IMG/VR virus record: IMGVR_UViG_2698536369_000012
Span: 1-9,761 of that record
DNA length: 9,761 nt
From: a virus
Taxonomy: Duplodnaviria > Heunggongvirae > Uroviricota > Caudoviricetes
Strand: one strand, 5' to 3'
The position numbers and the translations under genes are program-made. Shown here one piece after another: positions 1-9,761 of this stretch. The notes under the pieces are model-generated. The model saw only the letters and a program-made list of their open reading frames with translations. It was not told the DNA's origin and ran no database searches. Within the stretch, counting starts at the first letter, position 1. Every line of letters begins with the position of its first letter.

Positions 1-134
1 GCAATGGCCAGCTCTTCGTCACGCATGTTCTGCATGATGATGCGACGGCGGCGGTAAGCCGGGTCCGCCAGATTCTGCGGATCTTCATCCGGCAGGCGAC
101 GCAGGGTCATCTGCGGATTCACTTCATGCTTCGG
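1..134 (-). pseudogene. 3' internal fragment of a lambda-type major capsid protein E gene; runs off the left edge, 5' side cut by an in-frame TAG at 135-137
   Basis: Minus-strand translation of 1-134 gives PKHEVNPQMTLRRLPDEDPQNLADPAYRRRRIIMQNMRDEELAIA, which I recognise as an internal segment of phage lambda gpE. The next upstream codon (plus 135-137) is a stop, and sequence beyond it is AT-rich and unrelated. Confidence 0.7.
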
Positions 135-213
135 CTACATGAGTCAAATATGAAAGGATGTGAATGAATTTACTTGATAAAACATCATCAAATCGACATT
201 ATTCCTCCTTAAT

Positions 214-237
214 GCAATACAGCGTGCAATACAGCGT
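214..237. repeat. Perfect tandem direct repeat GCAATACAGCGT x2 upstream of the nuclease-domain gene
   Basis: Read directly: gcaatacagcgt at 214-225 and again at 226-237. Confidence 0.6.
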
Positions 238-240
238 GAA

Positions 241-283
241 GTGACATAAATCTGTTCATAGATTCAAGGTGTATAAATATTTA
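241..283 (+). promoter_or_regulatory. Putative sigma70-type promoter region for the 318-1190 gene
   Basis: AT-rich stretch with GTGACA (241-246) and TATAAAT (272-278) about 40 nt upstream of the start; exact -35/-10 spacing is not canonical, so this is tentative. Confidence 0.25.
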
Positions 284-317
284 ACCGTTACTCTGATGAT
301 TGGAACGAGGCTGCACA

Positions 318-1190
318 ATGACTAAAAACACTGGCAGAGATTATGAGGAATTTGTTGGGGCGATTCATCAAAGCTTGATACAAGCTGAGAAAATTTCTCA
401 CTTGAAAAACATCACCGTTGAAGTAAACAAAAAAATCGTAGATAAAAACGGCATAACTAGGCAATTCGATGTGTATTGGGAATTTAACTTAGGAGGTTAT
501 GAATATAAGACCGTAATCGAATGCAAAGACTACGCTTCAAGTGTAAGCATCGAGAAAATTGACGCATTCATCGGAAAAACAGCAGATATTCCCGGCCTAA
601 GACTAATTTATGCAACCAAAACAGGGTATCAAAGTGGGGCTCAAAAAAAAGCCGAACAATATAAAATTGACCTTCTAATAGTTCGTGAAGCTGATAACGA
701 AGACTGGCGCGCGCCAGATGGAACACCACTTATCAAAACTATTCAATTGAATATCGTCGCGATAACTCCCCCCAGAATAACTGCATTCTCACCAATGATA
801 GATGCAAGCTGGCTTGAGTCGCAAAAAAATTTAAACATAGATGATTTAAATTCAAGGTTCAGTCGACTACTTAACAACCAAATATTCATCGTTGATAATA
901 CTACCCACGACAAGTATTCTCTCTGCGACTTAGAAAACTCCTTATCCGCGAGAGTACCTAACATCCAATATGGTGCAGGTACTTACAAAGAAGAGCTAAC
1001 CGACGCTTATTTAGAGTTAGAAAATGGTGATTTAAGATTAAAGCTGAGAGGTTACTCACTTAATTACACATATAACAAACCGGCAGAGACAATTTCTACA
1101 ATTGACTATTCAAAAGAGTTATTGGGAATTGTTCAAAACTATACCTCTGGCGCTAAGAAAATGGTTTTCAAAGACGGAATTATAAAGTAA
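318..1190 (+). CDS. Mrr-like PD-(D/E)xK restriction-endonuclease-domain protein with an uncharacterised C-terminal domain (~290 aa); candidate defence or restriction gene
   Basis: ORF track 300-1190. The first ATG is at 318 with GAGG at 307-310 (7-nt spacing); the track's first codon at 300 is TTG. The N-terminal ~120 aa carry the Mrr catalytic-domain pattern (DYEEFV ... FDVYWEF ... VIECKDY ... GLRLIYATKTGYQSGA ... IDLLIV), i.e. a D...E.K nuclease core. Residues ~125-290 match nothing I recognise. The gene is markedly AT-rich compared with its flanks. Confidence 0.75.
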   Translation: MTKNTGRDYEEFVGAIHQSLIQAEKISHLKNITVEVNKKIVDKNGITRQFDVYWEFNLGGYEYKTVIECKDYASSVSIEKIDAFIGKTADIPGLRLIYATKTGYQSGAQKKAEQYKIDLLIVREADNEDWRAPDGTPLIKTIQLNIVAITPPRITAFSPMIDASWLESQKNLNIDDLNSRFSRLLNNQIFIVDNTTHDKYSLCDLENSLSARVPNIQYGAGTYKEELTDAYLELENGDLRLKLRGYSLNYTYNKPAETISTIDYSKELLGIVQNYTSGAKKMVFKDGIIK

Positions 1191-1247
1191 CAGCATATCA
1201 TTCGAAGTGATTTCCTAATCTAGTGATAAGTCGTTCAATATAAAGAT

Positions 1248-1285
1248 GCGGCCCTTAGCAGGGCCCATTTCACTTTCCTCTCTTC
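1248..1285 (+). terminator. Possible intrinsic terminator downstream of the 318-1190 gene
   Basis: GC stem GGCCC (1250-1254) / GGGCC (1261-1265) with a 6-nt loop, followed by a T-rich tract catttcactttcctctcttc. Confidence 0.35.
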
Positions 1286-1468
1286 GATTAAATCACGAAT
1301 TAAATCACAGCGAACTCAGTTTACAGTCTCAGTATATTTTTTAAACCTATGTTCATTTTCTGCCAATCTGCATTTCATATAATCCGCCCAGCATTTGAAA
1401 AGTGCTTCATCAGTGCCTAGGTAAGCATATAAATATCCCTTAAGAGCTTGGTCAGTAAGCACACTCTC

Positions 1469-1954
1469 CTAATCCCAGTCCACAATGAATTGACGGAAAA
1501 AACCGAATGATTTTGCCGGATCCACATTCCTCCATGTTCCCACCACGATACCAAACACCGGAATCTTAAACGTTACCATTATAGGAAAATCTTCATACCC
1601 AACTTGCTCGATAACTTCTTCTGGTTGTCTTAAACCTGTAGAGATGATACTTCCCTGATAAATTGCTCACCCTCCGGCCAGATGCGCATACCACATTTTG
1701 TCTTCGACATAGATCCACGCAGAAATGATTGCGCCCCCGATACGGCTCTTTCCATAAACTAACAAAACGGGATTCACCTGAGCGGTTGTGTTCGGTACGC
1801 CACAAAACGCATAGGATGCCTTGTAATCCGCATTCTGCTTACTCAATAGCTCACCAGCAGGGCGCATAAGGCTGTTGCGATAGTGCAGAAGTAGGCCACG
1901 ACCATGAAGCGAAGCCAGCGGCGCGTTATTGTCTACTTTAGTGTAGAGCCTGAT
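1469..1954 (-). pseudogene. Decayed gene of unknown family: ~160-codon reading frame with an internal in-frame TGA and no start codon at its 5' end
   Basis: Minus-strand frame translates as IRLYTKVDNNAPLASLHGRGLLLHYRNSLMRPAGELLSKQNADYKASYAFCGVPNTTAQVNPVLLVYGKSRIGGAIISAWIYVEDKMWYAHLAGG, then TGA at plus 1667-1669, then the same frame continues AIYQGSIISTGLRQPEEVIEQVGYEDFPIMVTFKIPVFGIVVGTWRNVDPAKSFGFFRQFIVDWD to a stop at 1469-1471. The track shows only the 66-aa piece (1667-1867). Confidence 0.4.
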
Positions 1955-2015
1955 TCAACGCAGGGGTGAGAGTTTTTTCTGGTGACAGACCGCGACAGAC
2001 GGCAACAAAACCAGA

Positions 2016-2070
2016 GAAAGGAAACGACACTGTCCAAAAAACACGTTTTCAGCATCTGTTGTTTCCTTTC
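2016..2070. repeat. Long inverted repeat: 14-bp arms (one mismatch) around a 27-nt loop, T-rich on both flanks
   Basis: gaaaggaaacgaca (2016-2029) pairs with tgttgtttcctttc (2057-2070); followed by tttttag on plus, and by a T-rich run on the minus-strand side as well. Confidence 0.5.
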
Positions 2071-2235
2071 TTTTTAGTGGGTGTTTCTAATAAAAACATT
2101 AAGTTACGGCGAAGAAGAACGGAAACGCTTTAAACCGGAAAATTTTCATAAATAGCAAAAAACTGCGCGCCTGACGCCCCGTAGTCTGCCGGATTGCCGG
2201 AAAGGACCCGCCAGCCAGAGCGGGCCCTAATTTCA

Positions 2236-2619
2236 TCAACCAATCAGCTTATAGCGACCATCCCGTGCATTGCGGCGTACACGCTCAATCTTGAGGCATA
2301 GCGCCGCATCTGGCTTTTTTGGGACAGGTACGCGGCAATATTCAGAAGCGCGAGGAATATTATTTATCCAGTCGATCACTTCACTTAAATACCAGGCCTT
2401 ACGCCCTTCCGTAACCTGCACACGCTCCGGGAACTCTCCACTAGCCTCAAGGTTTAGCAGTGTACGACGACTCAGGGTTGTAATTTCCATCACCTGATTC
2501 ATATCAACAAGGCGCTCGCTTAAACACATTTTGTCAGCGATAGCTTTTAATTCCTCTACAGCTGGATTCGGGTACATCATTTCGGCAATTGGCTTAAGGT
2601 CATTGTAATCATTCTGCAT
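2236..2619 (-). CDS. AlpA/Xis-type (MerR-like) helix-turn-helix DNA-binding protein, 127 aa, with N- and C-terminal extensions
   Basis: Central segment VMEITTLSRRTLLNLEASGEFPERVQVTEGRKAWYLSEVIDWI fits the AlpA/excisionase pattern (ITxLSRxTL ... G.FP ... W..SEV..WI). Strong RBS AGGGGGA 4 nt before the ATG, 11 nt after the stop of the decoration gene. Confidence 0.7.
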   Translation of the reverse strand: MQNDYNDLKPIAEMMYPNPAVEELKAIADKMCLSERLVDMNQVMEITTLSRRTLLNLEASGEFPERVQVTEGRKAWYLSEVIDWINNIPRASEYCRVPVPKKPDAALCLKIERVRRNARDGRYKLIG

Positions 2620-2630
2620 TGTATCCCCCT

Positions 2631-2972
2631 TTACACACGAGCCAGCGGCTGAACAGAAATACCTGAGCCAACAAACGCTGCAACCTTTACTGACAGTTCT
2701 TTAACAGACTCAGGCCAGTTCAGAGCATCAACATTTAAGACACCTGTCTTATAGACCTGAGCCTGTGTTTTTTTCGCGGTGTCGATTTGTACAGCGGAAA
2801 CATAAACCGCTTTACCTACGCTCGAACCATCCCATACCACCAGTGCACCTGTTGCATCTTCCTGCATCAGTGGCGTAAATGCAGGAATTACCCCTTTATT
2901 AGCTGAAAATATCCCCAGCGTAGTCACCAGTGCTTCAGTGCCAGCCATGAGTTCAGTGTAATGAGTAGCCAT
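2631..2972 (-). CDS. Lambda gpD-type head decoration protein homologue (113 aa)
   Basis: PAFTPLMQEDATGALVVWDG ... YKTGVLNVDALNWPE ... AAFVGSGISV parallels lambda gpD as I recall it ([20 protein letters not shown] ... YKSGTFRYEDVLWPE ... TAFAGTAISIV). Its RBS GGGGGAG overlaps the stop codon of the upstream capsid gene. Confidence 0.8.
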   Translation of the reverse strand: MATHYTELMAGTEALVTTLGIFSANKGVIPAFTPLMQEDATGALVVWDGSSVGKAVYVSAVQIDTAKKTQAQVYKTGVLNVDALNWPESVKELSVKVAAFVGSGISVQPLARV

Positions 2973-2981
2973 TGCTCCCCC

Positions 2982-4022
2982 TTAGCCAATGCGAACGGTA
3001 ACAAAACGATTGATGCGGGCCGGTATTGGCTGTGGTGCTGAATGTGTCTGCACATATTCAATAGCCGGATCACCAGGCACAATATAGTTTTTCGGCGCAA
3101 GTTCGGCTTTAGTCAGCCCCATTCGGATTAGCTCCGGATCCTGAATACCGCCATAGGCGACAATCCCCTGAAGAGCCGTATTGCCAAGCACCATCAAATC
3201 AGGATCAAGGAAATGTTTTTCAGTTCCGTCCTCGTCGGTATAACGCCCGCTGTATACAACAATCGCAACATCGCCCATATACCCTTTAAAACTCACCGAA
3301 TCACCAAGGTCTTTGAGGGCCGTTTCCAGTTCGGAATTAGAACCACGACGGGTATCCAGAGCCTCTTTTATCGCTCTGAATGAACGGTATTTCTTCCATA
3401 CATTACCGCCCATAATGATGATATTAGTGACGCCCTCACTAAATTCTGCGTAGCTCTCAATATCATCATTTGGATCAAAAGTTTCTTTATCCTTACCTGA
3501 CCACTCAGCACCGCCAAACTGAGTGATGATATTTTGTGGTTTAATATTCCAGTCCAGCTCATAACGTTCAATACCATCGCCCTCAATGATATTTTTCCCC
3601 GTTGTGATTGCCTGAACGGCAAGCCATTCAATACGTGCACGAATAGCTTTAGCCTGATTTACAATCGCCTGTTTAACTTTAATATTACGCGCTCCAAAAG
3701 CATTGTATTGCTCAGGTGATACACCAGCAGGGCGCACAGCTAACTTATTTGGATCAATGCTGCTTTTCGGCTTCATATAGCCTGGACGAATTGTTTTTGA
3801 TTCGTACCCTTCGTCACGTGAAACTTTACTACCCACCATAGGAGAACAAAACGCTGCAATTGGGATATTTGGATCGTCGATTGTATCAAGAATAATATCG
3901 CGCGATTCAAACATTACCGAGCGAGTAAAAAACAAACTGGTAAACAACGCATTTAGTTGTTTTTGTACATCTACAGCATTAACCACCTGTACAAGCTGGG
4001 TAGGCGAATATAAATCAACCAT
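2982..4022 (-). CDS. Lambda gpE-type major capsid protein, full length (~346 aa), divergent from lambda
   Basis: Blocks GGAEWSGKDKETFDPNDDIESYA and TRRGSNSELETALKDLGDSVSFKGYMGDVAIVVYSGRY closely match recalled lambda gpE (GGTEWSKRDKSTYDPTDDIEAYA; TRRGSNSELETAVKDLGKAVSYKGMYGDVAIVVYSGQY). The track ORF runs to 4196, but the start is most likely ATG at 4022 (MVDLYSPTQL...), which has GAGG 6 nt upstream and gives a lambda-E-like length; ATG at 4028 is an alternative. Confidence 0.85.
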   Translation of the reverse strand: MVDLYSPTQLVQVVNAVDVQKQLNALFTSLFFTRSVMFESRDIILDTIDDPNIPIAAFCSPMVGSKVSRDEGYESKTIRPGYMKPKSSIDPNKLAVRPAGVSPEQYNAFGARNIKVKQAIVNQAKAIRARIEWLAVQAITTGKNIIEGDGIERYELDWNIKPQNIITQFGGAEWSGKDKETFDPNDDIESYAEFSEGVTNIIIMGGNVWKKYRSFRAIKEALDTRRGSNSELETALKDLGDSVSFKGYMGDVAIVVYSGRYTDEDGTEKHFLDPDLMVLGNTALQGIVAYGGIQDPELIRMGLTKAELAPKNYIVPGDPAIEYVQTHSAPQPIPARINRFVTVRIG

Positions 4023-4196
4023 ACGCATCCTCTTTGCATTCATTAAAAATAATTGTGGATATATGCTATCACCGATATTTGTCATGCGAATACATGCAAC
4101 CGAGTGCAATGTTGTATAAAGTTTTGGGATGACAACTTCAGCGCGGATAATTAGTGTTAATATCTTCACTCCCTTTGGTCTGGATTTATGTAGCAT

Positions 4197-4230
4197 GCCG
4201 GAAAATTTATTTTTTTCCGGCCTTTTTTAT
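4197..4230. terminator. Strong hairpin between the SSB and capsid genes; T-tract lies on the plus-strand side, so function for the minus-strand operon is uncertain
   Basis: gccggaaaa (4197-4205) / ttttccggc (4213-4221), a perfect 9-bp stem with 7-nt loop, followed on plus by cttttttat. May act bidirectionally or as an RNA structural element. Confidence 0.3.
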
Positions 4231-4239
4231 TGGCAATAT

Positions 4240-4689
4240 TTAAAACGGAATATCATCTCCCCATTGCTCATTATCTCCCACTGGTGGATGGCTTCCTTGC
4301 TGATCTGCCTGTTGTTTTGCTCTGTTCAGTGCGTCAGTAGCCTGACCCTGTTGATCTTTTTTGCCGCCCGGTCGCACAGTTCGCGCACTGATTACGCTGT
4401 CTGCGATAACCTGCCACCCCTGCCGCGTTTCACCGTTCTGTCCAGTCCACTGGCTCACCTGCATATTACCCGCCACGCTCAGGAGTTCGCCTTTGTGATG
4501 CTTTGCCAGCGCGTCGGCTTGTCTGCCAAACGCCAGCACAGATAACCACATCGTCGCCGTTCCGTCATCTGCCTGGCTGCATGGCAAAGATACCGCCATC
4601 CGTGCCAGTGTCATGGGTGTTCCCTTGCTGGTATGTTTTACCTGTGGGTCGTCCACCAGCCGCCCGTAAGCTGCTATTTGCGCCGTCAT
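4240..4689 (-). CDS. ssb: Single-stranded DNA-binding protein (SSB), 149 aa
   Basis: OB-fold-like N-terminal region, a Gly/Gln-rich linker (QQGQATDALNRAKQQADQQG) and the hallmark acidic C-terminal tail ending DDIPF. Confidence 0.8.
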   Translation of the reverse strand: MTAQIAAYGRLVDDPQVKHTSKGTPMTLARMAVSLPCSQADDGTATMWLSVLAFGRQADALAKHHKGELLSVAGNMQVSQWTGQNGETRQGWQVIADSVISARTVRPGGKKDQQGQATDALNRAKQQADQQGSHPPVGDNEQWGDDIPF

Positions 4690-4700
4690 GCTGCCTGCTC

Positions 4701-4943
4701 TCAGGACTTAATATTGATGGTTGTCACTTCCTCCGCTTCGGCAATCTCCCGTTCGGTCAGCGTGGCAAAGTTTGCAGCCGCCGTTGTCATGAATGCGCTT
4801 ATCAGTTCGGGATGTGCTTTCGCGTATCCTTCCCCGGCGTTGCGGTCTATTGCCTTAATCGCCACCCTTAGCCAGTGTTCAGCCATATCAAGGGCGCGGT
4901 AATGTGGCTTTATATGTTTGTTCAGTTTTCCTGATGTGTGCAT
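4701..4943 (-). CDS. Hypothetical small protein (80 aa), first gene downstream of the iteron region
   Basis: ORF track; GAGGGGG upstream of the ATG; stop lies 11 nt before the SSB start. No recognisable motif. Confidence 0.45.
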   Translation of the reverse strand: MHTSGKLNKHIKPHYRALDMAEHWLRVAIKAIDRNAGEGYAKAHPELISAFMTTAAANFATLTEREIAEAEEVTTINIKS

Positions 4944-4990
4944 TTTTATTTTTACCCCCTCGTTTAAAAAGTTTTTTGTGCACCACCACC

Positions 4991-5218
4991 TTGTCTACCT
5001 TGTCTACCTGATTAGTTATCAGGCCAGTAATGGCGCGGGTTTCAGGGAGGTAGACAGCCCCAAATAGCTGTCTACCTCATCTCTACCCGTCTCCTTACCT
5101 GTCTACAAAAATGGGTAGATAAGGTAGATAACAGGTAGACAGTGAAAAATAGTTATCTACCTGCATTAATACATTGAAATAAAAGTATTTTATTTCAGTC
5201 AGGTAGACAAGGTAGATA
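4991..5218. repeat. Iteron array: at least 12 copies of the octamer GGTAGA(C/T)A / TGTCTACC in both orientations, with an AT-rich spacer; putative replication origin
   Basis: Copies read at 4991-4999, 5000-5008, 5049-5056, 5069-5076, 5080-5088 (variant), 5100-5107, 5114-5121, 5123-5130, 5134-5141, 5153-5161, 5202-5209 and 5211-5218. AT-rich block at 5161-5200. Sits immediately 3' of the primase-helicase gene. Confidence 0.7.
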
Positions 5219-5232
5219 ACCATTGCCATTTT

Positions 5233-6984
5233 TTATAAAAACGCATCGCAATCATCAGTAGTCGTTGCGTTGGTCTGCGTGACTCCCTTAACTTTTCGCG
5301 TAATATATTCATATCCGTAAACTTTCGCCGCTGACCTCATAGCCTTTCCGAACTCATTCACGCTCAAACATTTCCCCTTTCCTGTATATGCCATGAAGGC
5401 CATATAGACACGGTAAAGGCTGTTTCTGGTCGTGTACTTCACGGTGTCACCACCACCGCCCATCATTAGCCCACGAGCTTCCTCCAGAAACTCCAGCGCC
5501 GCGCAAAGCTCAACAACCGGATCCGTTTGCTGCTTTATTGCCAGAGCTTCATCACCGTCACGCTGTTCCAGTAATAAAGCCCGTGCCTTTTCAGGGTCAG
5601 CAAAATTAGCCAGCAAGCGGCGGATAATTACGGGGATTTCTGCCGCTATCTTTTCCGGTAATTCCTTGTCTTTTTCGTCCTCCCTTACAATGTTGTCGAA
5701 CCGGAAAATCACCCGACGGCGTGACACACCTCCGGCCCGTTCGGTAAAGATCATCGGGTCGTTATTGGTTGCCAGTACCACCGCCCTTATTATCGTCGTG
5801 AATCGCTTCTCATATTTCGGGTTAATTTCAACGGGATCGCCTCCCGTGATTTTCTTGATGCCCGTGCCTTCCCCCGTATATTTCGGCTGATCGGCAAGGA
5901 CGATAAGACGACTCCCGACAACCTGCGCGCGCCCTCCTGCATCATCGAGTGATGTCATCTCTGCGCTTACGGTGTTCTGTTTGCCAGCAAGCAGGGTGGC
6001 AATATGGGTAAATGTACTCTTACCGCTTCCCCCGTCTCCGGTGGCCTCAATGAACATCTGCCAGTCGTAGCGGTTCGCCATAATCATGTATAACGCGGCA
6101 CATATACGCATCATCTTGCGCGGGTCTTTTCCTGCAGCATGTTCAAGCCATTTATGGAAATTTGGCGCATTATCGCGGATGTTTTCCCCTGCTACTGGTG
6201 GCGTGTACTCAATGCCATTGTGCGTGGTGCTCCAGTGCTCCGGTGAGTGCGGAGAAAAATCCCCCGTTTTCAGGTTAAGCACACCATTAGTGAACGGTAG
6301 TAAATCACCGGACGGCTCCCCCATGGGGTCGGCAATAACTTTTAACGCTTCCACGGCGTTATTGATTACACGTTTGCTGAACGTGGCCCTGTGCTCTGAA
6401 TAGATCGCCACCATTTCGCGGCTCAGCTCCATTGTGCTGACCGGACACCATACCCCGCCGCGCCATACGTGGACGATTTCACTTTCTGCATGAACACACA
6501 CACCATCAAAGCGATCGGCAAGTAGTTGTGCACGTTCACTGTCTGCCATCTGTGAAAGTTGCGCCTTTTGCTTCGTCGGAAGATTAAGCACCAGACTTTC
6601 CCCACGCTCGCATTCCTCTTTGAGTCGCGGCAACTGGTCGGATAAATCCACGGGGCTGGTGTCAGTAATCCCCGCGTATTCGTGTACGGTCTTCACTCCA
6701 GCCACAGCCAGTAACGTAACAATCTGCGTCATGCTGTGCTCTGTGATATGTCCTGCGCGGTAAACACGCACACACTGACGATCTTCATCAATGATCCGGT
6801 AATCGATGATGTTTTTCAGTTGCTCATCAGCCAGCACGACAGGCGGCACATCGTCGGCGGCAATATGTTTACCCGCCCATTCCTGCCACTCTTTCGCATG
6901 GCTCCACGCATCACTACCTGCAAAGATGATTACCTCTGTCAGTCTGTCGCGTGGCTGTTTTTTTAAGTTCGGTGCCAGTTTCAT
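5233..6984 (-). CDS. Replication primase-helicase, P4-alpha/D5-type with SF3 helicase domain (583 aa)
   Basis: Walker A GDGGSGKST, Walker B-like RLIVLADQP and motif C VVLATNND are in the order typical of D5/P4-alpha SF3 NTPases. RBS AGGGG lies 7 nt upstream. The start overlaps the upstream gene's stop (ATGA). Confidence 0.85.
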   Translation of the reverse strand: MKLAPNLKKQPRDRLTEVIIFAGSDAWSHAKEWQEWAGKHIAADDVPPVVLADEQLKNIIDYRIIDEDRQCVRVYRAGHITEHSMTQIVTLLAVAGVKTVHEYAGITDTSPVDLSDQLPRLKEECERGESLVLNLPTKQKAQLSQMADSERAQLLADRFDGVCVHAESEIVHVWRGGVWCPVSTMELSREMVAIYSEHRATFSKRVINNAVEALKVIADPMGEPSGDLLPFTNGVLNLKTGDFSPHSPEHWSTTHNGIEYTPPVAGENIRDNAPNFHKWLEHAAGKDPRKMMRICAALYMIMANRYDWQMFIEATGDGGSGKSTFTHIATLLAGKQNTVSAEMTSLDDAGGRAQVVGSRLIVLADQPKYTGEGTGIKKITGGDPVEINPKYEKRFTTIIRAVVLATNNDPMIFTERAGGVSRRRVIFRFDNIVREDEKDKELPEKIAAEIPVIIRRLLANFADPEKARALLLEQRDGDEALAIKQQTDPVVELCAALEFLEEARGLMMGGGGDTVKYTTRNSLYRVYMAFMAYTGKGKCLSVNEFGKAMRSAAKVYGYEYITRKVKGVTQTNATTTDDCDAFL

Positions 6985-7280
6985 TTTTTGCCCCTGAATG
7001 CGTTAATCATGCTTTTCATTTTCTGGATGTTTCCCCGCGCTTTTTCCCTGCTGGTGGGCTTACTGCGGGGTGCGGCATATACCAGGGAAAAATCACGCCG
7101 GAACTGATAAACAGGCATCACGCAGTCATAGCTATACCCCTCACGGCGGTAAGTGATGCGCCGTTCTGCCACGCCTTTAATCTTTACCGTGCCGCCGTAT
7201 TTATCGCGGTAAATATCGCCGTTCATAAATTCAGGCCGAGCGGGGCCGCTGGCAATAAAGCCAGAATTTTTCATTTCCAT
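6981..7280 (-). CDS. Hypothetical basic protein (99 aa), translationally coupled to the primase-helicase
   Basis: ORF track; GAGGAA RBS; 4-nt stop/start overlap with the primase gene. Function not recognised. Confidence 0.55.
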   Translation of the reverse strand: MEMKNSGFIASGPARPEFMNGDIYRDKYGGTVKIKGVAERRITYRREGYSYDCVMPVYQFRRDFSLVYAAPRSKPTSREKARGNIQKMKSMINAFRGKK

Positions 7281-7297
7281 ATTATTTATTCCTCGAC

Positions 7298-7519
7298 TTA
7301 ACTCGACTTATTTGATAGCAGGGCACTATTTATTGCGTCATTGAGTTTTTCTGCTGATTCATCAATAAGTGACAACAGGCCATAAGCAATATTTGCATCT
7401 TCATTGTCATTTATGCAATCAAGCCACATATTTAATATTGCTTTTGCTGAATTATTTAAAGTTAATGAACTTTCTGTACATGCTAACAATTTAAAAAAGA
7501 CTTGCCGTTCTGTATTCAT
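7298..7519 (-). CDS. Hypothetical small protein (73 aa), AT-rich
   Basis: ORF track; GGGGGA RBS 4 nt upstream; start is directly adjacent to the upstream gene's stop. Confidence 0.5.
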   Translation of the reverse strand: MNTERQVFFKLLACTESSLTLNNSAKAILNMWLDCINDNEDANIAYGLLSLIDESAEKLNDAINSALLSNKSS

Positions 7520-7711
7520 TTAATCCCCCAGCAGCTTACTTTCTTCCTCAATCAAAAAACTAGCGACACTTCCCGAAAGACGCGCCAGTAGGCTCGCCAG
7601 TGCGGATATATCAGCATCTGTAATTTTGTTCGGGTATACCTCAAGAAGGCGGCAAATAATTTCTGTCTGGTGCGCACGTTCAGCGGCTTCGTGTAATGTA
7701 ATTTCCTGCAT
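7520..7711 (-). CDS. Hypothetical small protein (63 aa)
   Basis: ORF track; AGAGGTG RBS; its start overlaps the upstream gene's stop by 1 nt (TAATG). Confidence 0.5.
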   Translation of the reverse strand: MQEITLHEAAERAHQTEIICRLLEVYPNKITDADISALASLLARLSGSVASFLIEEESKLLGD

Positions 7712-7896
7712 TAATGCACCTCTTTTAATTCATACACTGCTGAAATAATGACTTGTGATAAGCCATATTCTGATGATTCGCTTCTCACCGCAGCAATAGC
7801 CGTCTGAACATTAACAGCCTTCACATTCTGAGCGATACCAATTGTGTGGCCTAGTGGGTTAACAGCTCGGGCAAATACACGGAAGGTTTTAAGCAT
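7711..7896 (-). CDS. Hypothetical small protein (61 aa), first gene of the minus-strand operon
   Basis: ORF track; GGGAG RBS 5-6 nt upstream of the ATG at 7894-7896. Confidence 0.5.
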   Translation of the reverse strand: MLKTFRVFARAVNPLGHTIGIAQNVKAVNVQTAIAAVRSESSEYGLSQVIISAVYELKEVH

Positions 7897-8177
7897 GACT
7901 CACTCCCTGGCGGATTTTTGCAGCGAATACAGCAACACAACCGGACGGGCAACGGCTACGCGCTTCGCGTTCCGTCCAGGCGGTTACGTGGATGATTTGA
8001 GATTCTCCGGCACTCAGTGCCAGAAAACGCCACACAAAGGCCGTTTGTGTGTGTACAAGGTGTGGTATATGATTTACAGCAACCATAACGGCTCCTAGTT
8101 TACGTTGTTGGTTAGACGCCCCGTATGTGTTCCCAGCACTGCGGGGCGTTGCTCTTTGTATTTCAACAATCCTTTCG

Positions 8178-8255
8178 GTGTGTTTCATGTTATGAGCGCA
8201 TGAAACACACGTCAAGGCTTTTTGTATTTCTTTTTTTGTGTATACTGAAACACAC
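8178..8255. promoter_or_regulatory. Operator-like site set in the divergent intergenic region: perfect 12-bp inverted repeat plus a third half-site overlapping an extended -10 element
   Basis: gtgtgtttcatg (8178-8189), 9-bp spacer, catgaaacacac (8199-8210); a third gaaacacac copy at 8247-8255. TGTG-TATACT (8237-8246) looks like an extended -10 for the 8277 gene. Confidence 0.5.
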
Positions 8256-8276
8256 CGATGATTAGGAGTTTCAGAA

Positions 8277-8582
8277 ATGGCAACGGCTAACAAAAACGCA
8301 AAATCACAACTGACAACTGTCAGAGTCCCACTAGATGTTATGCAAGGGATGGAATCCGTTAAGCTGGACGGTGAAAGCAATGCCGGATTTATCGTAACCG
8401 CCATGCGCGGAGAAATAGCCCGCCGCCAAGCAGAAGGCAGCGGAGAAAATCCCCTTGTGTCGTCACTGGATGCCCTGGCTAAGGTCGAACAAATCGGCAT
8501 CAAAGCAGCCGAGGAGATCGGGCAACTCGTCACCGTCGCGCGTGAAGAACTCCAGCGACGCAAGGTCAAAGAGCATGAATAG
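8277..8582 (+). CDS. Hypothetical protein (101 aa), possibly a small DNA-binding regulator
   Basis: ORF track; AGGAG RBS 8 nt upstream; sits next to the operator-like repeats. N-terminal LTTVRVPLDVMQGM is reminiscent of a ribbon-helix-helix beta strand, but that is weak. Confidence 0.65.
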   Translation: MATANKNAKSQLTTVRVPLDVMQGMESVKLDGESNAGFIVTAMRGEIARRQAEGSGENPLVSSLDALAKVEQIGIKAAEEIGQLVTVAREELQRRKVKEHE

Positions 8583-8639
8583 CCAATATCAGCGCCATAG
8601 TTTGAGGAACGCAGGCGCATTGCTTTACAGGACAGCACC

Positions 8640-8819
8640 ATGAGCGACACAGAATCAACCAAAACACCATCACCAACTCGTAAGAGACGACGCAAAAATA
8701 TAGCGCATGAACATGAATCAGAAAGATTCGCACCTTGTTCGTTTGCTCTTGAGAAATTCCTTAAAGAGCACAGGAAAAAGCTCTCGTTGCAAACCTTGGA
8801 ACGAACCAAATCTGACTGA
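8640..8819 (+). CDS. Possible small basic protein (59 aa), not in the ORF track
   Basis: My own translation from ATG 8640 to TGA 8817-8819: MSDTESTKTPSPTRKRRRKNIAHEHESERFAPCSFALEKFLKEHRKKLSLQTLERTKSD. AGGA lies 7 nt upstream, and a terminator follows. Confidence 0.35.
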   Translation: MSDTESTKTPSPTRKRRRKNIAHEHESERFAPCSFALEKFLKEHRKKLSLQTLERTKSD

Positions 8820-8885
8820 TCACATTGCCCACCAGCCGCAAATGTGGCATTGTTGGTGATGCTTTTGTTTTCCCTTGTTCCCACT

Positions 8886-8916
8886 GGCGACCCTTTTGCG
8901 GTCGCCTTTGTTTTGT
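8886..8916 (+). terminator. Rho-independent terminator between convergent genes
   Basis: ggcgacc (8886-8892) / ggtcgcc (8900-8906), a perfect 7-bp stem with 7-nt loop, followed by tttgttttgt. Confidence 0.6.
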
Positions 8917-9494
8917 CACTGAATGCGGTTACCAAAGTAAAACTCAGGCTGATATTCACGTATCAGCGTTTTTTCTTCTTCCTCCAGCTCACGCTTTTTG
9001 CGCTTACATGCCTGTAGCTCCCTCCCCTTCTCGCTGGCACTTATTTGATATTGCTCTTTACGGCGGGAAAAATCCTGTAATGCACCCCACGGGATACCAT
9101 AAGTCCCCGTTTTTCTGATACCTGGTATCACATTTCTGAATACCCAGTTACTGAAACGATGAGCAAATGTGCCAGGCGTCGTTGCTTTGCGGCTGCGGGC
9201 TATTAGTTTGTAGAAACCTGACTCAGAGATAATTCTCATATTCTGATTTCCTCCTGGGGTGTAAGTTAAATTTACTCCCTTTTCATCATCATCAAGCATC
9301 TGCAACGCCGTACGCGAATTGGTTAGTTCCAGCGCAGCACAAACATCTTTTGCAACAAACCACGGATCGCCGTTCAGATACACCACACGAACGTTCACAC
9401 TATCAAAGCGCAGAACGACGAGATCACGAATATCGCAGAATTTTTTCACTGGACGAGCGTACCCCTTGCCCGTCACGGCAATATTTTTATTCAT
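8916..9494 (-). CDS. Bro-N domain protein (phage antirepressor-like), 192 aa
   Basis: N-terminal ~100 aa (RFDSVNVRVVYLNGDPWFVAKDVCAALELTNSRTALQMLDDDEKG ... ISESGFYKLIARSRKATTPGTFAHRFSNWV) fit the Bro-N / antirepressor N-terminal domain pattern. C-terminal region is charged and coiled-coil-like. Confidence 0.8.
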   Translation of the reverse strand: MNKNIAVTGKGYARPVKKFCDIRDLVVLRFDSVNVRVVYLNGDPWFVAKDVCAALELTNSRTALQMLDDDEKGVNLTYTPGGNQNMRIISESGFYKLIARSRKATTPGTFAHRFSNWVFRNVIPGIRKTGTYGIPWGALQDFSRRKEQYQISASEKGRELQACKRKKRELEEEEKTLIREYQPEFYFGNRIQ

Positions 9495-9513
9495 CGCGTT
9501 TTTACCTTATAGA

Positions 9514-9537
9514 CAAAAAACCCCTCGTGATGAGGGG
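9514..9537 (-). terminator. Rho-independent terminator on the minus strand, downstream of the IS-truncated gene
   Basis: cccctc (9521-9526) / gagggg (9532-9537) with 5-nt loop; on the minus strand it is followed by TTTTTTG (plus 9514-9520). Confidence 0.5.
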
Positions 9538-9543
9538 CATTAT

Positions 9544-9646
9544 TTACTGGTTATTGCTGTTTTGTTTTTCCAGGTTTCCATCCAGGATGCCACTCACCAC
9601 GGATCCATGCCTGAACCTCTGAAAGTCGATACCCTGCAGCACGTTC
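9544..9646 (-). pseudogene. 3' end of a minus-strand gene truncated by the IS insertion
   Basis: Minus-strand frame is open from the IS boundary down to TAA at 9544-9546: NVLQGIDFQRFRHGSVVSGILDGNLEKQNSNNQ. No start codon; the 5' part must lie beyond the IS. Confidence 0.4.
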
Positions 9647-9761
9647 TGAACCGCCCCGGGAATCCTGGAGACTAAACTCCCTGAGAAAGAGGTAAACAGA
9701 ATGACTAAAAATACTCGTTTTTCCCCCGAAGTCCGTCAGAGGGCGATTCGTATGGTTCTGG
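9647..9761 (+). mobile_element. Left end of an IS629-like IS3-family insertion sequence (partial, continues past the window)
   Basis: Terminal sequence TGAACCGCCCCGGGAATCCTGGAGACTAAACTCCCTGAGAAAGAGG matches the IS629/IS3411-type left inverted repeat as I recall it, followed by the orfA start. Confidence 0.8.
9701..9761 (+). CDS. IS3-family transposase OrfA, N-terminal 20 codons (partial)
   Basis: Translation MTKNTRFSPEVRQRAIRMVL matches the N-terminus of IS629-type OrfA; GAGG RBS upstream. Confidence 0.8.
   Translation, partial: MTKNTRFSPEVRQRAIRMVL

Follow-up and report, generated by a model that had tools for sequence, protein, structure and literature searches.

The question that this locus raises is whether a dense cluster of octamer repeats directly behind a replication gene is a replication origin and, if so, to what kind of element it belongs. 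The window, that is, the whole stretch of DNA analysed here, comprises 9,761 nucleotides (positions 1 to 9,761 of the IMG/VR record IMGVR_UViG_2698536369_000012, Caudoviricetes). An exact search of both strands of the whole window found ten copies of GGTAGAYA, all of them within 4992-5218, against a chance expectation of 0.38 per window and a maximum of 3 in 200 dinucleotide-preserving shuffles. When one mismatch is allowed, GGTAGAGA at 5080-5087 and TGTAGACA at 5100-5107 are added, resulting in 12 copies within 227 bp. A preliminary description of this DNA had counted at least 12 octamers in both orientations, tandem pairs included, within about 230 bp, and the count is reproduced as ten exact plus two one-mismatch copies. 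Relatives keep 11 of these 12 copies; the exception is the copy at 5100-5107, which is doubtful for that reason. The same description had placed the array immediately 3' of the gene at 5233-6984, and indeed 14 bp separate the last iteron from the gene's stop codon (5233-5235, minus strand).

The array is a pseudo-palindrome centred at about 5105, whose two modules mirror each other and have five to six sites each. When 5106-5224 is reverse-complemented, 4986-5104 can be aligned to it gap-free and five iterons coincide. Both halves follow the same pattern: two tandem sites are separated by 48 bp from a single inverted site, and 20 bp further on come more tandem sites. In the Rep-proximal half, the tandem pair GGTAGACA and GGTAGATA (5202-5218; sites 5202 and 5211, plus strand), whose core is invariant in the 13 representative arrays described below, is followed by an A+T-rich spacer (5162-5201) and by a group that borders this spacer, with one inverted iteron (5154, minus strand) and three tandem iterons (5114, 5123 and 5134, plus strand) at 5114-5161. 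The Rep-distal half (4992-5107) carries sites 4992 and 5001 (minus), 5049 (plus), 5069 (minus), 5080 (minus, the GGTAGAGA copy) and the doubtful 5100 (minus, the TGTAGACA copy). A 9-bp spacing recurs in three tandem pairs, 4992/5001, 5114/5123 and 5202/5211.

The spacer at 5162-5201 corresponds to the 40-bp AT-rich segment of the preliminary description and is 80% A+T. Two iterons flank it at one end and at least four at the other, and the orientation is reversed across it. By nearest-neighbour energy, only one 40-mer of the 9.7-kb window is less stable than 5154-5193, which overlaps the spacer (-41.9 kcal/mol, compared to a window mean of -53.7 and a standard deviation of 4.4). The low predicted stability agrees with the role as DNA-unwinding element suggested before, a role that is presumed here as well. 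In the distal module, the place held by the A+T-rich segment in the proximal one is occupied by a G+C-richer, conserved non-iteron block, GCCAGTAATGGCGCGGGTTTCAGG (5023-5046), which is nearly invariant in both of the iteron flavours considered below. This block was not recognisable in the arrays of Serratia, Morganella, vB_KppS-Ant or P4 with which it was compared.

The gene upstream of the array (5233-6984, minus strand) encodes Rep, a protein of 583 amino acids recognised as an initiator-helicase by Pfam, PHROG and PDB matches. An N-terminal domain (residues 1-130) is followed by D5_N (152-282), an SF3 helicase P-loop domain (DUF5906, 315-416) and a C-terminal winged-helix origin-binding domain; the Pfam matches are D5_N (7.4e-15), DUF5906 (5.4e-10) and Pox_D5 (6e-4). 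The protein belongs to PHROG 864, 'DNA primase' (2e-160), its residues 219-441 match the helicase of SaPI5 PriRep5 (PDB 7OLA, 9.5e-15), and it is 42% identical to residues 321-762 of P4 alpha. Residues 487-578, encoded at 5251-5526 (minus strand), match the origin-binding domain of P4 alpha (PDB 1KA8; phmmer, E = 2.3e-7). The gene had been called a primase-helicase in the preliminary description. A helicase and an origin-binding domain were found, but domain searches recognised neither the Zn-ribbon nor the Toprim domain of P4 alpha in Rep; since a recognisable primase domain is missing, 'primase-helicase' should be regarded as an inherited name, and initiator-helicase is the function that is supported.

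The N-terminal domain of Rep (residues 1-130, 6595-6984) stands where P4 alpha has its primase part. It gave no Pfam match, and it occurs as alleles 43-49% identical to each other that are joined to a helicase at least 89% identical. In the AlphaFold2 model, made from an alignment of 23 sequences that was too shallow, residues 1-127 form an alpha/beta domain and are the only confident part (overall mean pLDDT 45); a homologue search, with hits of at least 80% identity only, added little for modelling. A Foldseek comparison of the model with the PDB returned nothing at E <= 0.001, the best match, a suggestive one, being the RNA polymerase domain of S. aureus DnaG (E = 0.035); the domain may or may not be a degenerate Toprim. 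A scan of genome contigs with the single Rep protein found 4 loci.

The closest described counterpart of this region is that of EcCICFT073, the prototype of the Gram-negative phage-inducible chromosomal islands (PICIs), which lies in the chromosome of E. coli CFT073. Its gene order is pri-rep, a 288-bp intergenic region, an 85-aa ORF, SSB, PerC, one small ORF, capsid and decoration genes. The intergenic region aligns over its full length with window positions 4944-5232, the octamers have the same sequence and orientation and mostly the same positions, and the Rep proteins are 80% identical. Both elements have their array of GGTAGAYA iterons 3' of the initiator gene, with an A+T-rich centre and the same neighbours: DUF4222 lies upstream, and an ORF of 80-85 aa, SSB, capsid and decoration genes lie downstream. 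The two differ in the spacers, which are about 75% identical, in the N-terminal 150 residues of Rep, which are another allele (47% identity), and in location, since EcCICFT073 resides in the chromosome and the window element, a helper-embedded one, in the capsid gene of a prophage.

These similarities matter because the counterpart has been studied experimentally. Fillol-Salom et al. (2018, PMC6092414) located the origin of Gram-negative PICIs directly 3' of the initiator and described it as 'two sets of iterons' around 'an AT rich region'. A cloned pri-ori segment of EcCICFT073 maintains a plasmid, an ability abolished in a rep mutant, and deletion of ori left colony formation 'significantly reduced', not abolished (PMC6092414). 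Deletion of the EcCICFT073 pri-rep gene lowered transfer about 100-fold, not to zero. The window array shows the same position 3' of pri-rep, the same arrangement of iterons around an A+T segment, and homology to the tested ori. The full-length alignment, the shared octamers and the identity between the Rep proteins, together with the published test (PMC6092414), therefore indicate that the window array is an allele of an origin already described and tested.

The preliminary description had compared the array to the ori/crr system of phage P4, and the comparison is only partly borne out. For P4 we relied on the GenBank annotation NC_001609, on PDB 1KA8 and on a review (PMC4889955). Rep and P4 alpha share homologous D5_N, SF3 helicase and origin-binding domains, the last of these being homologous to 1KA8, and both systems use octamer iterons in both orientations. 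Each half of the array has the layout of P4 ori, and for the proximal module the agreement is close: both have two tandem sites, a gap, one inverted site and three tandem sites, with spacings of 9, 48, 20, 11 and 9 in the window and 10, 43, 22, 11 and 10 in P4, and the A+T-rich spacer resembles the P4 ori gap in position and size (40 bp and 80% A+T, compared with 35 bp and 83%). On the other hand, the P4 iteron, the type I octamer TGTTCACC, differs from GGTAGAYA, the sequence TGTTCAC(C) being found only in P4 and more distant relatives. Moreover, P4 has two clusters (4314-4585 and 9310-9413), with ori and crr about 4.7 kb apart, instead of one dyad-symmetric cluster, and its alpha protein has the Zn-ribbon and Toprim primase part that is not recognisable in Rep. 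Because the iteron differs, the cluster is single and the primase domain is missing, the window does not belong to the P4 ori/crr system. The resemblance stands for mechanism, homology and layout; the closest family is the PICI ori.

In P4, however, the region directly 3' of the alpha gene, which is the place of the window array, is crr, and ori lies about 4.7 kb away. It could thus be argued that the array is a crr-like replication enhancer or a copy-control (handcuffing) site bound by Rep, with initiation at another site, and the spacer of the distal half, which is not A+T-rich, would fit such a role. Against this, the exact octamer forms a single cluster in the window and in each of three complete related elements and occurs nowhere else in them, so that the second cluster is absent, and the proximal half has the layout of P4 ori, including the 80% A+T gap. 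In EcCICFT073, in addition, rep with its 3' region is what maintains the plasmid, with the losses in the rep mutant and on ori deletion mentioned above (PMC6092414). We consider a crr-like or copy-control function unlikely.

The reading of the array as an origin also agrees with what is known of the staphylococcal islands. SaPI origins consist of six to twelve iterons just downstream of rep, with an A+T-rich centre and opposite iterons on each side (PMC9371898), and the helicase core of Rep matches SaPI5 PriRep5 in 7OLA. Unlike the window octamers, the iterons of SaPIs are five or six nucleotides long and unrelated in sequence, and beyond the ATPase core the relationship between the proteins is distant. 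SaPI Reps recognise their iterons through a C-terminal winged helix and have a self-loading helicase of the SF3 type (PMC9371898); in P4, likewise, the C-terminal winged helix of gp-alpha binds the origin (PMC4889955).

Comparison among relatives allowed us to ask which parts of the array are maintained. The intergenic region has matches, diverged to about 75% identity, in 567 of 5426 complete E. coli genomes, and the Rep gene plus array of Nissle, a related replication module, matched in 1195 of 5426. A set of 86 related loci yielded 54 distinct arrays, which were thinned to 13 representatives with pairwise identities below 95%. Every one of the 54 arrays has 9-11 copies of the 6-bp core GGTAGA, while the spacers drift. 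Among the 13 representatives, the iteron core columns have a mean conservation of 0.90 and 74% of them are invariant, compared to 0.73 and 26% for the other array columns (Mann-Whitney p = 3e-9; the observed value was reached by 0 of 240 circular shifts of the mask). More distant relatives preserve the same layout with other iterons: TGTTCAC in Serratia (Rep 51% identity), TGTTCAT in Morganella (52%) and TGTTCACC, as in P4, in the induced element vB_KppS-Ant (41%).

Within the 54 arrays the octamer exists in two flavours, GGTAGAYA in 29 and GGTAGANG in 25, and nearly all copies within one array carry the same flavour. Octamer positions 7-8 have thus changed in concert, the pattern to be expected of sites recognised by one sequence-specific protein. 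Only two of the 211 variable Rep columns separate the flavours perfectly, with N543 and G546 accompanying GGTAGAYA and A543 and S546 accompanying GGTAGANG; in the window the two codons lie at 5356-5358 (N543) and 5347-5349 (G546) on the minus strand, coordinates that were confirmed by translation. No flavour-separating column was found in the 80-aa ORF, SSB or DUF4222, although these genes are just as closely linked to the array. Since the end of the Rep gene adjoins the array, the association between protein and iteron could be partly due to linkage; linkage alone, however, does not account for the fact that only residues 543 and 546 track the iterons. In the closest pair of opposite flavour, the last 600 nt of rep show 19 differences, 8 of which are concentrated in codons 543-546. 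For the C-terminal domain (pLDDT about 55) the AlphaFold2 model predicts three helices (489-507, 520-534 and 542-556) and then a hairpin, which would put both residues at the start of the third helix, a placement that is tentative because the model is poor in this domain. The earlier prediction that the octamers are binding sites of the protein is consistent with the 1KA8-like C-terminal domain and with a flavour that tracks residues 543 and 546, and at the level of sequence they are good candidates for Rep binding sites.

Based on these observations we hypothesize that a two-residue switch at 543 and 546 sets the replication specificity of E. coli PICIs and divides them into orthogonal replicon groups, and that the double module brings about asymmetric loading of a double hexamer. 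We put this forward tentatively, as a proposal whose chances fall slightly short of even. According to it, a Rep with N543/G546 would read GGTAGAYA and one with A543/S546 would read GGTAGANG, and all 9-11 iterons of an array would have changed in concert with the switch. The spacers of the dyad double module, A+T-rich in one half, conserved and G+C-richer in the other, would cause the two hexamers, placed head to head, to be loaded asymmetrically. The predicted discriminating duplex pair for the switch is GGTAGACA versus GGTAGAGG. If the proposal is true, several PICIs, or a PICI and a prophage host, could share a cell without cross-firing. Its practical gain would be that specificity might be predicted from octamer positions 7-8 and Rep residues 543 and 546, which could be used in the construction of orthogonal PICI replicons.

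The position of the array between co-oriented genes also invites a transcriptional explanation. The 80-aa ORF directly downstream (4701-4943, minus strand; PHROG 1231, 8.5e-46) is syntenic in EcCICFT073 and in all relatives examined, and its ribosome-binding region (4948-4976) is conserved. The array lies just upstream of that region and contains the conserved non-iteron block 5023-5046, so that it might be an operator or roadblock, bound by an island regulator or by Rep as a repressor, for read-through from rep into the 80-aa, SSB and capsid genes, with no role in replication. A scan of 4700-5500 found neither a sigma-70-like promoter nor an intrinsic terminator, and hence the position of the array is what such an operator or promoter function would have to be argued from. 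In addition, the iteron flavour tracks only the origin-binding domain of Rep, the architecture is that of P4 ori and PICI ori, and the orthologous region affects replication (PMC6092414). We therefore regard a purely transcriptional role as very unlikely.

The surrounding genes identify the element that carries the array. On the minus strand the order is Bro-N, several small ORFs, DUF4222, the helicase gene, the array, the 80-aa ORF, the SSB of the island replication module (4240-4689, minus strand; Pfam SSB, 7.2e-15; syntenic in relatives), a lambda gpE-like major capsid gene, a gpD-like decoration gene and an AlpA-family regulator. Gram-negative PICIs are recognised as small islands with int, an AlpA-type regulator, a primase-family Rep, unidirectional genes and a helper cos site, and helper-embedded PICIs (HE-PICIs), in addition, by their insertion into a late gene of a prophage, in the same orientation as that gene. 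The window shows the Rep, SSB, capsid, decoration and AlpA genes on the minus strand, a cos-like segment and a fragment of lambda E; the int gene lies outside the window and is present in the related element of E. coli strain 104. That fragment, window positions 1-136, shows 100% identity to E, the major capsid gene of lambda, and the junction is near 137. In strain 104, whose array is identical to that of the window, the element interrupts a lambdoid prophage in its major capsid gene and carries a tyrosine integrase, Rep, SSB and its own capsid and decoration genes. The identity to lambda E at 1-136 and the split capsid gene of strain 104 therefore lead us to assign the window to a helper-embedded PICI like 11capE (PMC10111431).

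Satellites of this kind need packaging and attachment sites in cis, and the inverted repeats detected in the array (I2, I3 and I7) give a strong single-stranded DNA fold (z = -9.7), which raises the alternative of a packaging (cos/pac) or recombination (att) site. A cos-like segment, however, is found elsewhere, at 2006-2167, with 87-89% identity to the cos region of phages 434 and 2B8, and the attachment junction lies near 137, at the lambda E fragment; we judge a packaging or att function of the array to be extremely improbable. The fold itself was rejected as evidence of structured RNA or DNA, being a trivial by-product of the inverted iterons. The match at 2006-2167 spans the binding sites of the terminase small subunit and of IHF, and from its sequence the segment is presumably the cos site used by the island for packaging by the helper. 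Searches of the whole window with Rfam (gathering threshold) and for tRNA genes gave nothing.

Four independent lines, which are the homology with EcCICFT073, the match to 1KA8, the conservation of the iteron core and the co-variation between flavour and protein, support the preliminary description of the array as a putative origin. We consider it highly probable that the array at 4992-5218 is the ori of a Gram-negative PICI that is helper-embedded in a lambda-like capsid gene. By analogy with the systems discussed above, replication would begin with the production of the 583-aa Rep upon induction. The C-terminal winged helix of Rep would recognise the GGTAGAYA octamers, and the protein would assemble on the oppositely oriented sites around 5162-5201 and melt the spacer. 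In the next step Rep would load onto the DNA by itself in the form of an SF3 hexameric helicase; probably two hexamers would be loaded head to head, in the way put forward for SaPI Reps (PMC9371898). The island SSB would coat the unwound strands. Since Rep has no recognisable primase domain, priming is expected to come from the host, presumably by DnaG.

It had also been claimed that the array marks an autonomously replicating unit. This can be maintained only in the sense of an induced satellite. For the related HE-PICI 11capE, the attP:attB ratio was near 1 in two of three induction repeats (PMC10111431), and because it stayed near 1, self-replication of 11capE after excision may be weak or ambiguous.

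The origin type is thus one already described, its EcCICFT073 counterpart has been tested, and the array is an ordinary, well-explained feature. It is settled as an allele linked to a tested replicon, and the window as a satellite residing within the capsid gene of a prophage. Its family is common in E. coli; no new kind of biology is opened. The additions made here are modest: the two-residue specificity correlation, the dyad double module shared with P4 ori and the missing primase domain.

Some further observations concern the remaining genes of the island. The element has its own gpE-like capsid and gpD-like decoration genes (2631-4196, minus strand) while interrupting the capsid gene of its helper. 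For the EcCICFT073 homologues of these genes, c1499 and c1500, a phenotype was not detectable (PMC6092414). A cargo ORF at 300-1190 (plus strand), opposite to the island genes, has a weak match to the restriction endonuclease family Mrr_cat (Pfam, E = 1.2e-4), and PADLOC returned no match for this ORF and its neighbours. In strain 104, DUF262 and HEPN genes occupy the place of the cargo ORF. Given Mrr_cat here and DUF262/HEPN there, the cargo slot looks variable and is possibly defence-related.

On the other side of the replication module, a minus-strand ORF of 356 aa (7889-8959) is probably spurious. Related islands in RefSeq show a short Icd-like gene and, on the opposite strand, a gene of the YlcI/YnfO family that corresponds to the plus-strand ORF 8277-8582 of the window. 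Finally, the module formed by DUF4222, Rep, ori and SSB was found joined to other late genes, namely portal, protease and HK97-type capsid genes at one locus (L004) and a ClpP-protease/capsid fusion at another (L003). The presence of different late genes behind the same module shows modular exchange downstream of the origin.
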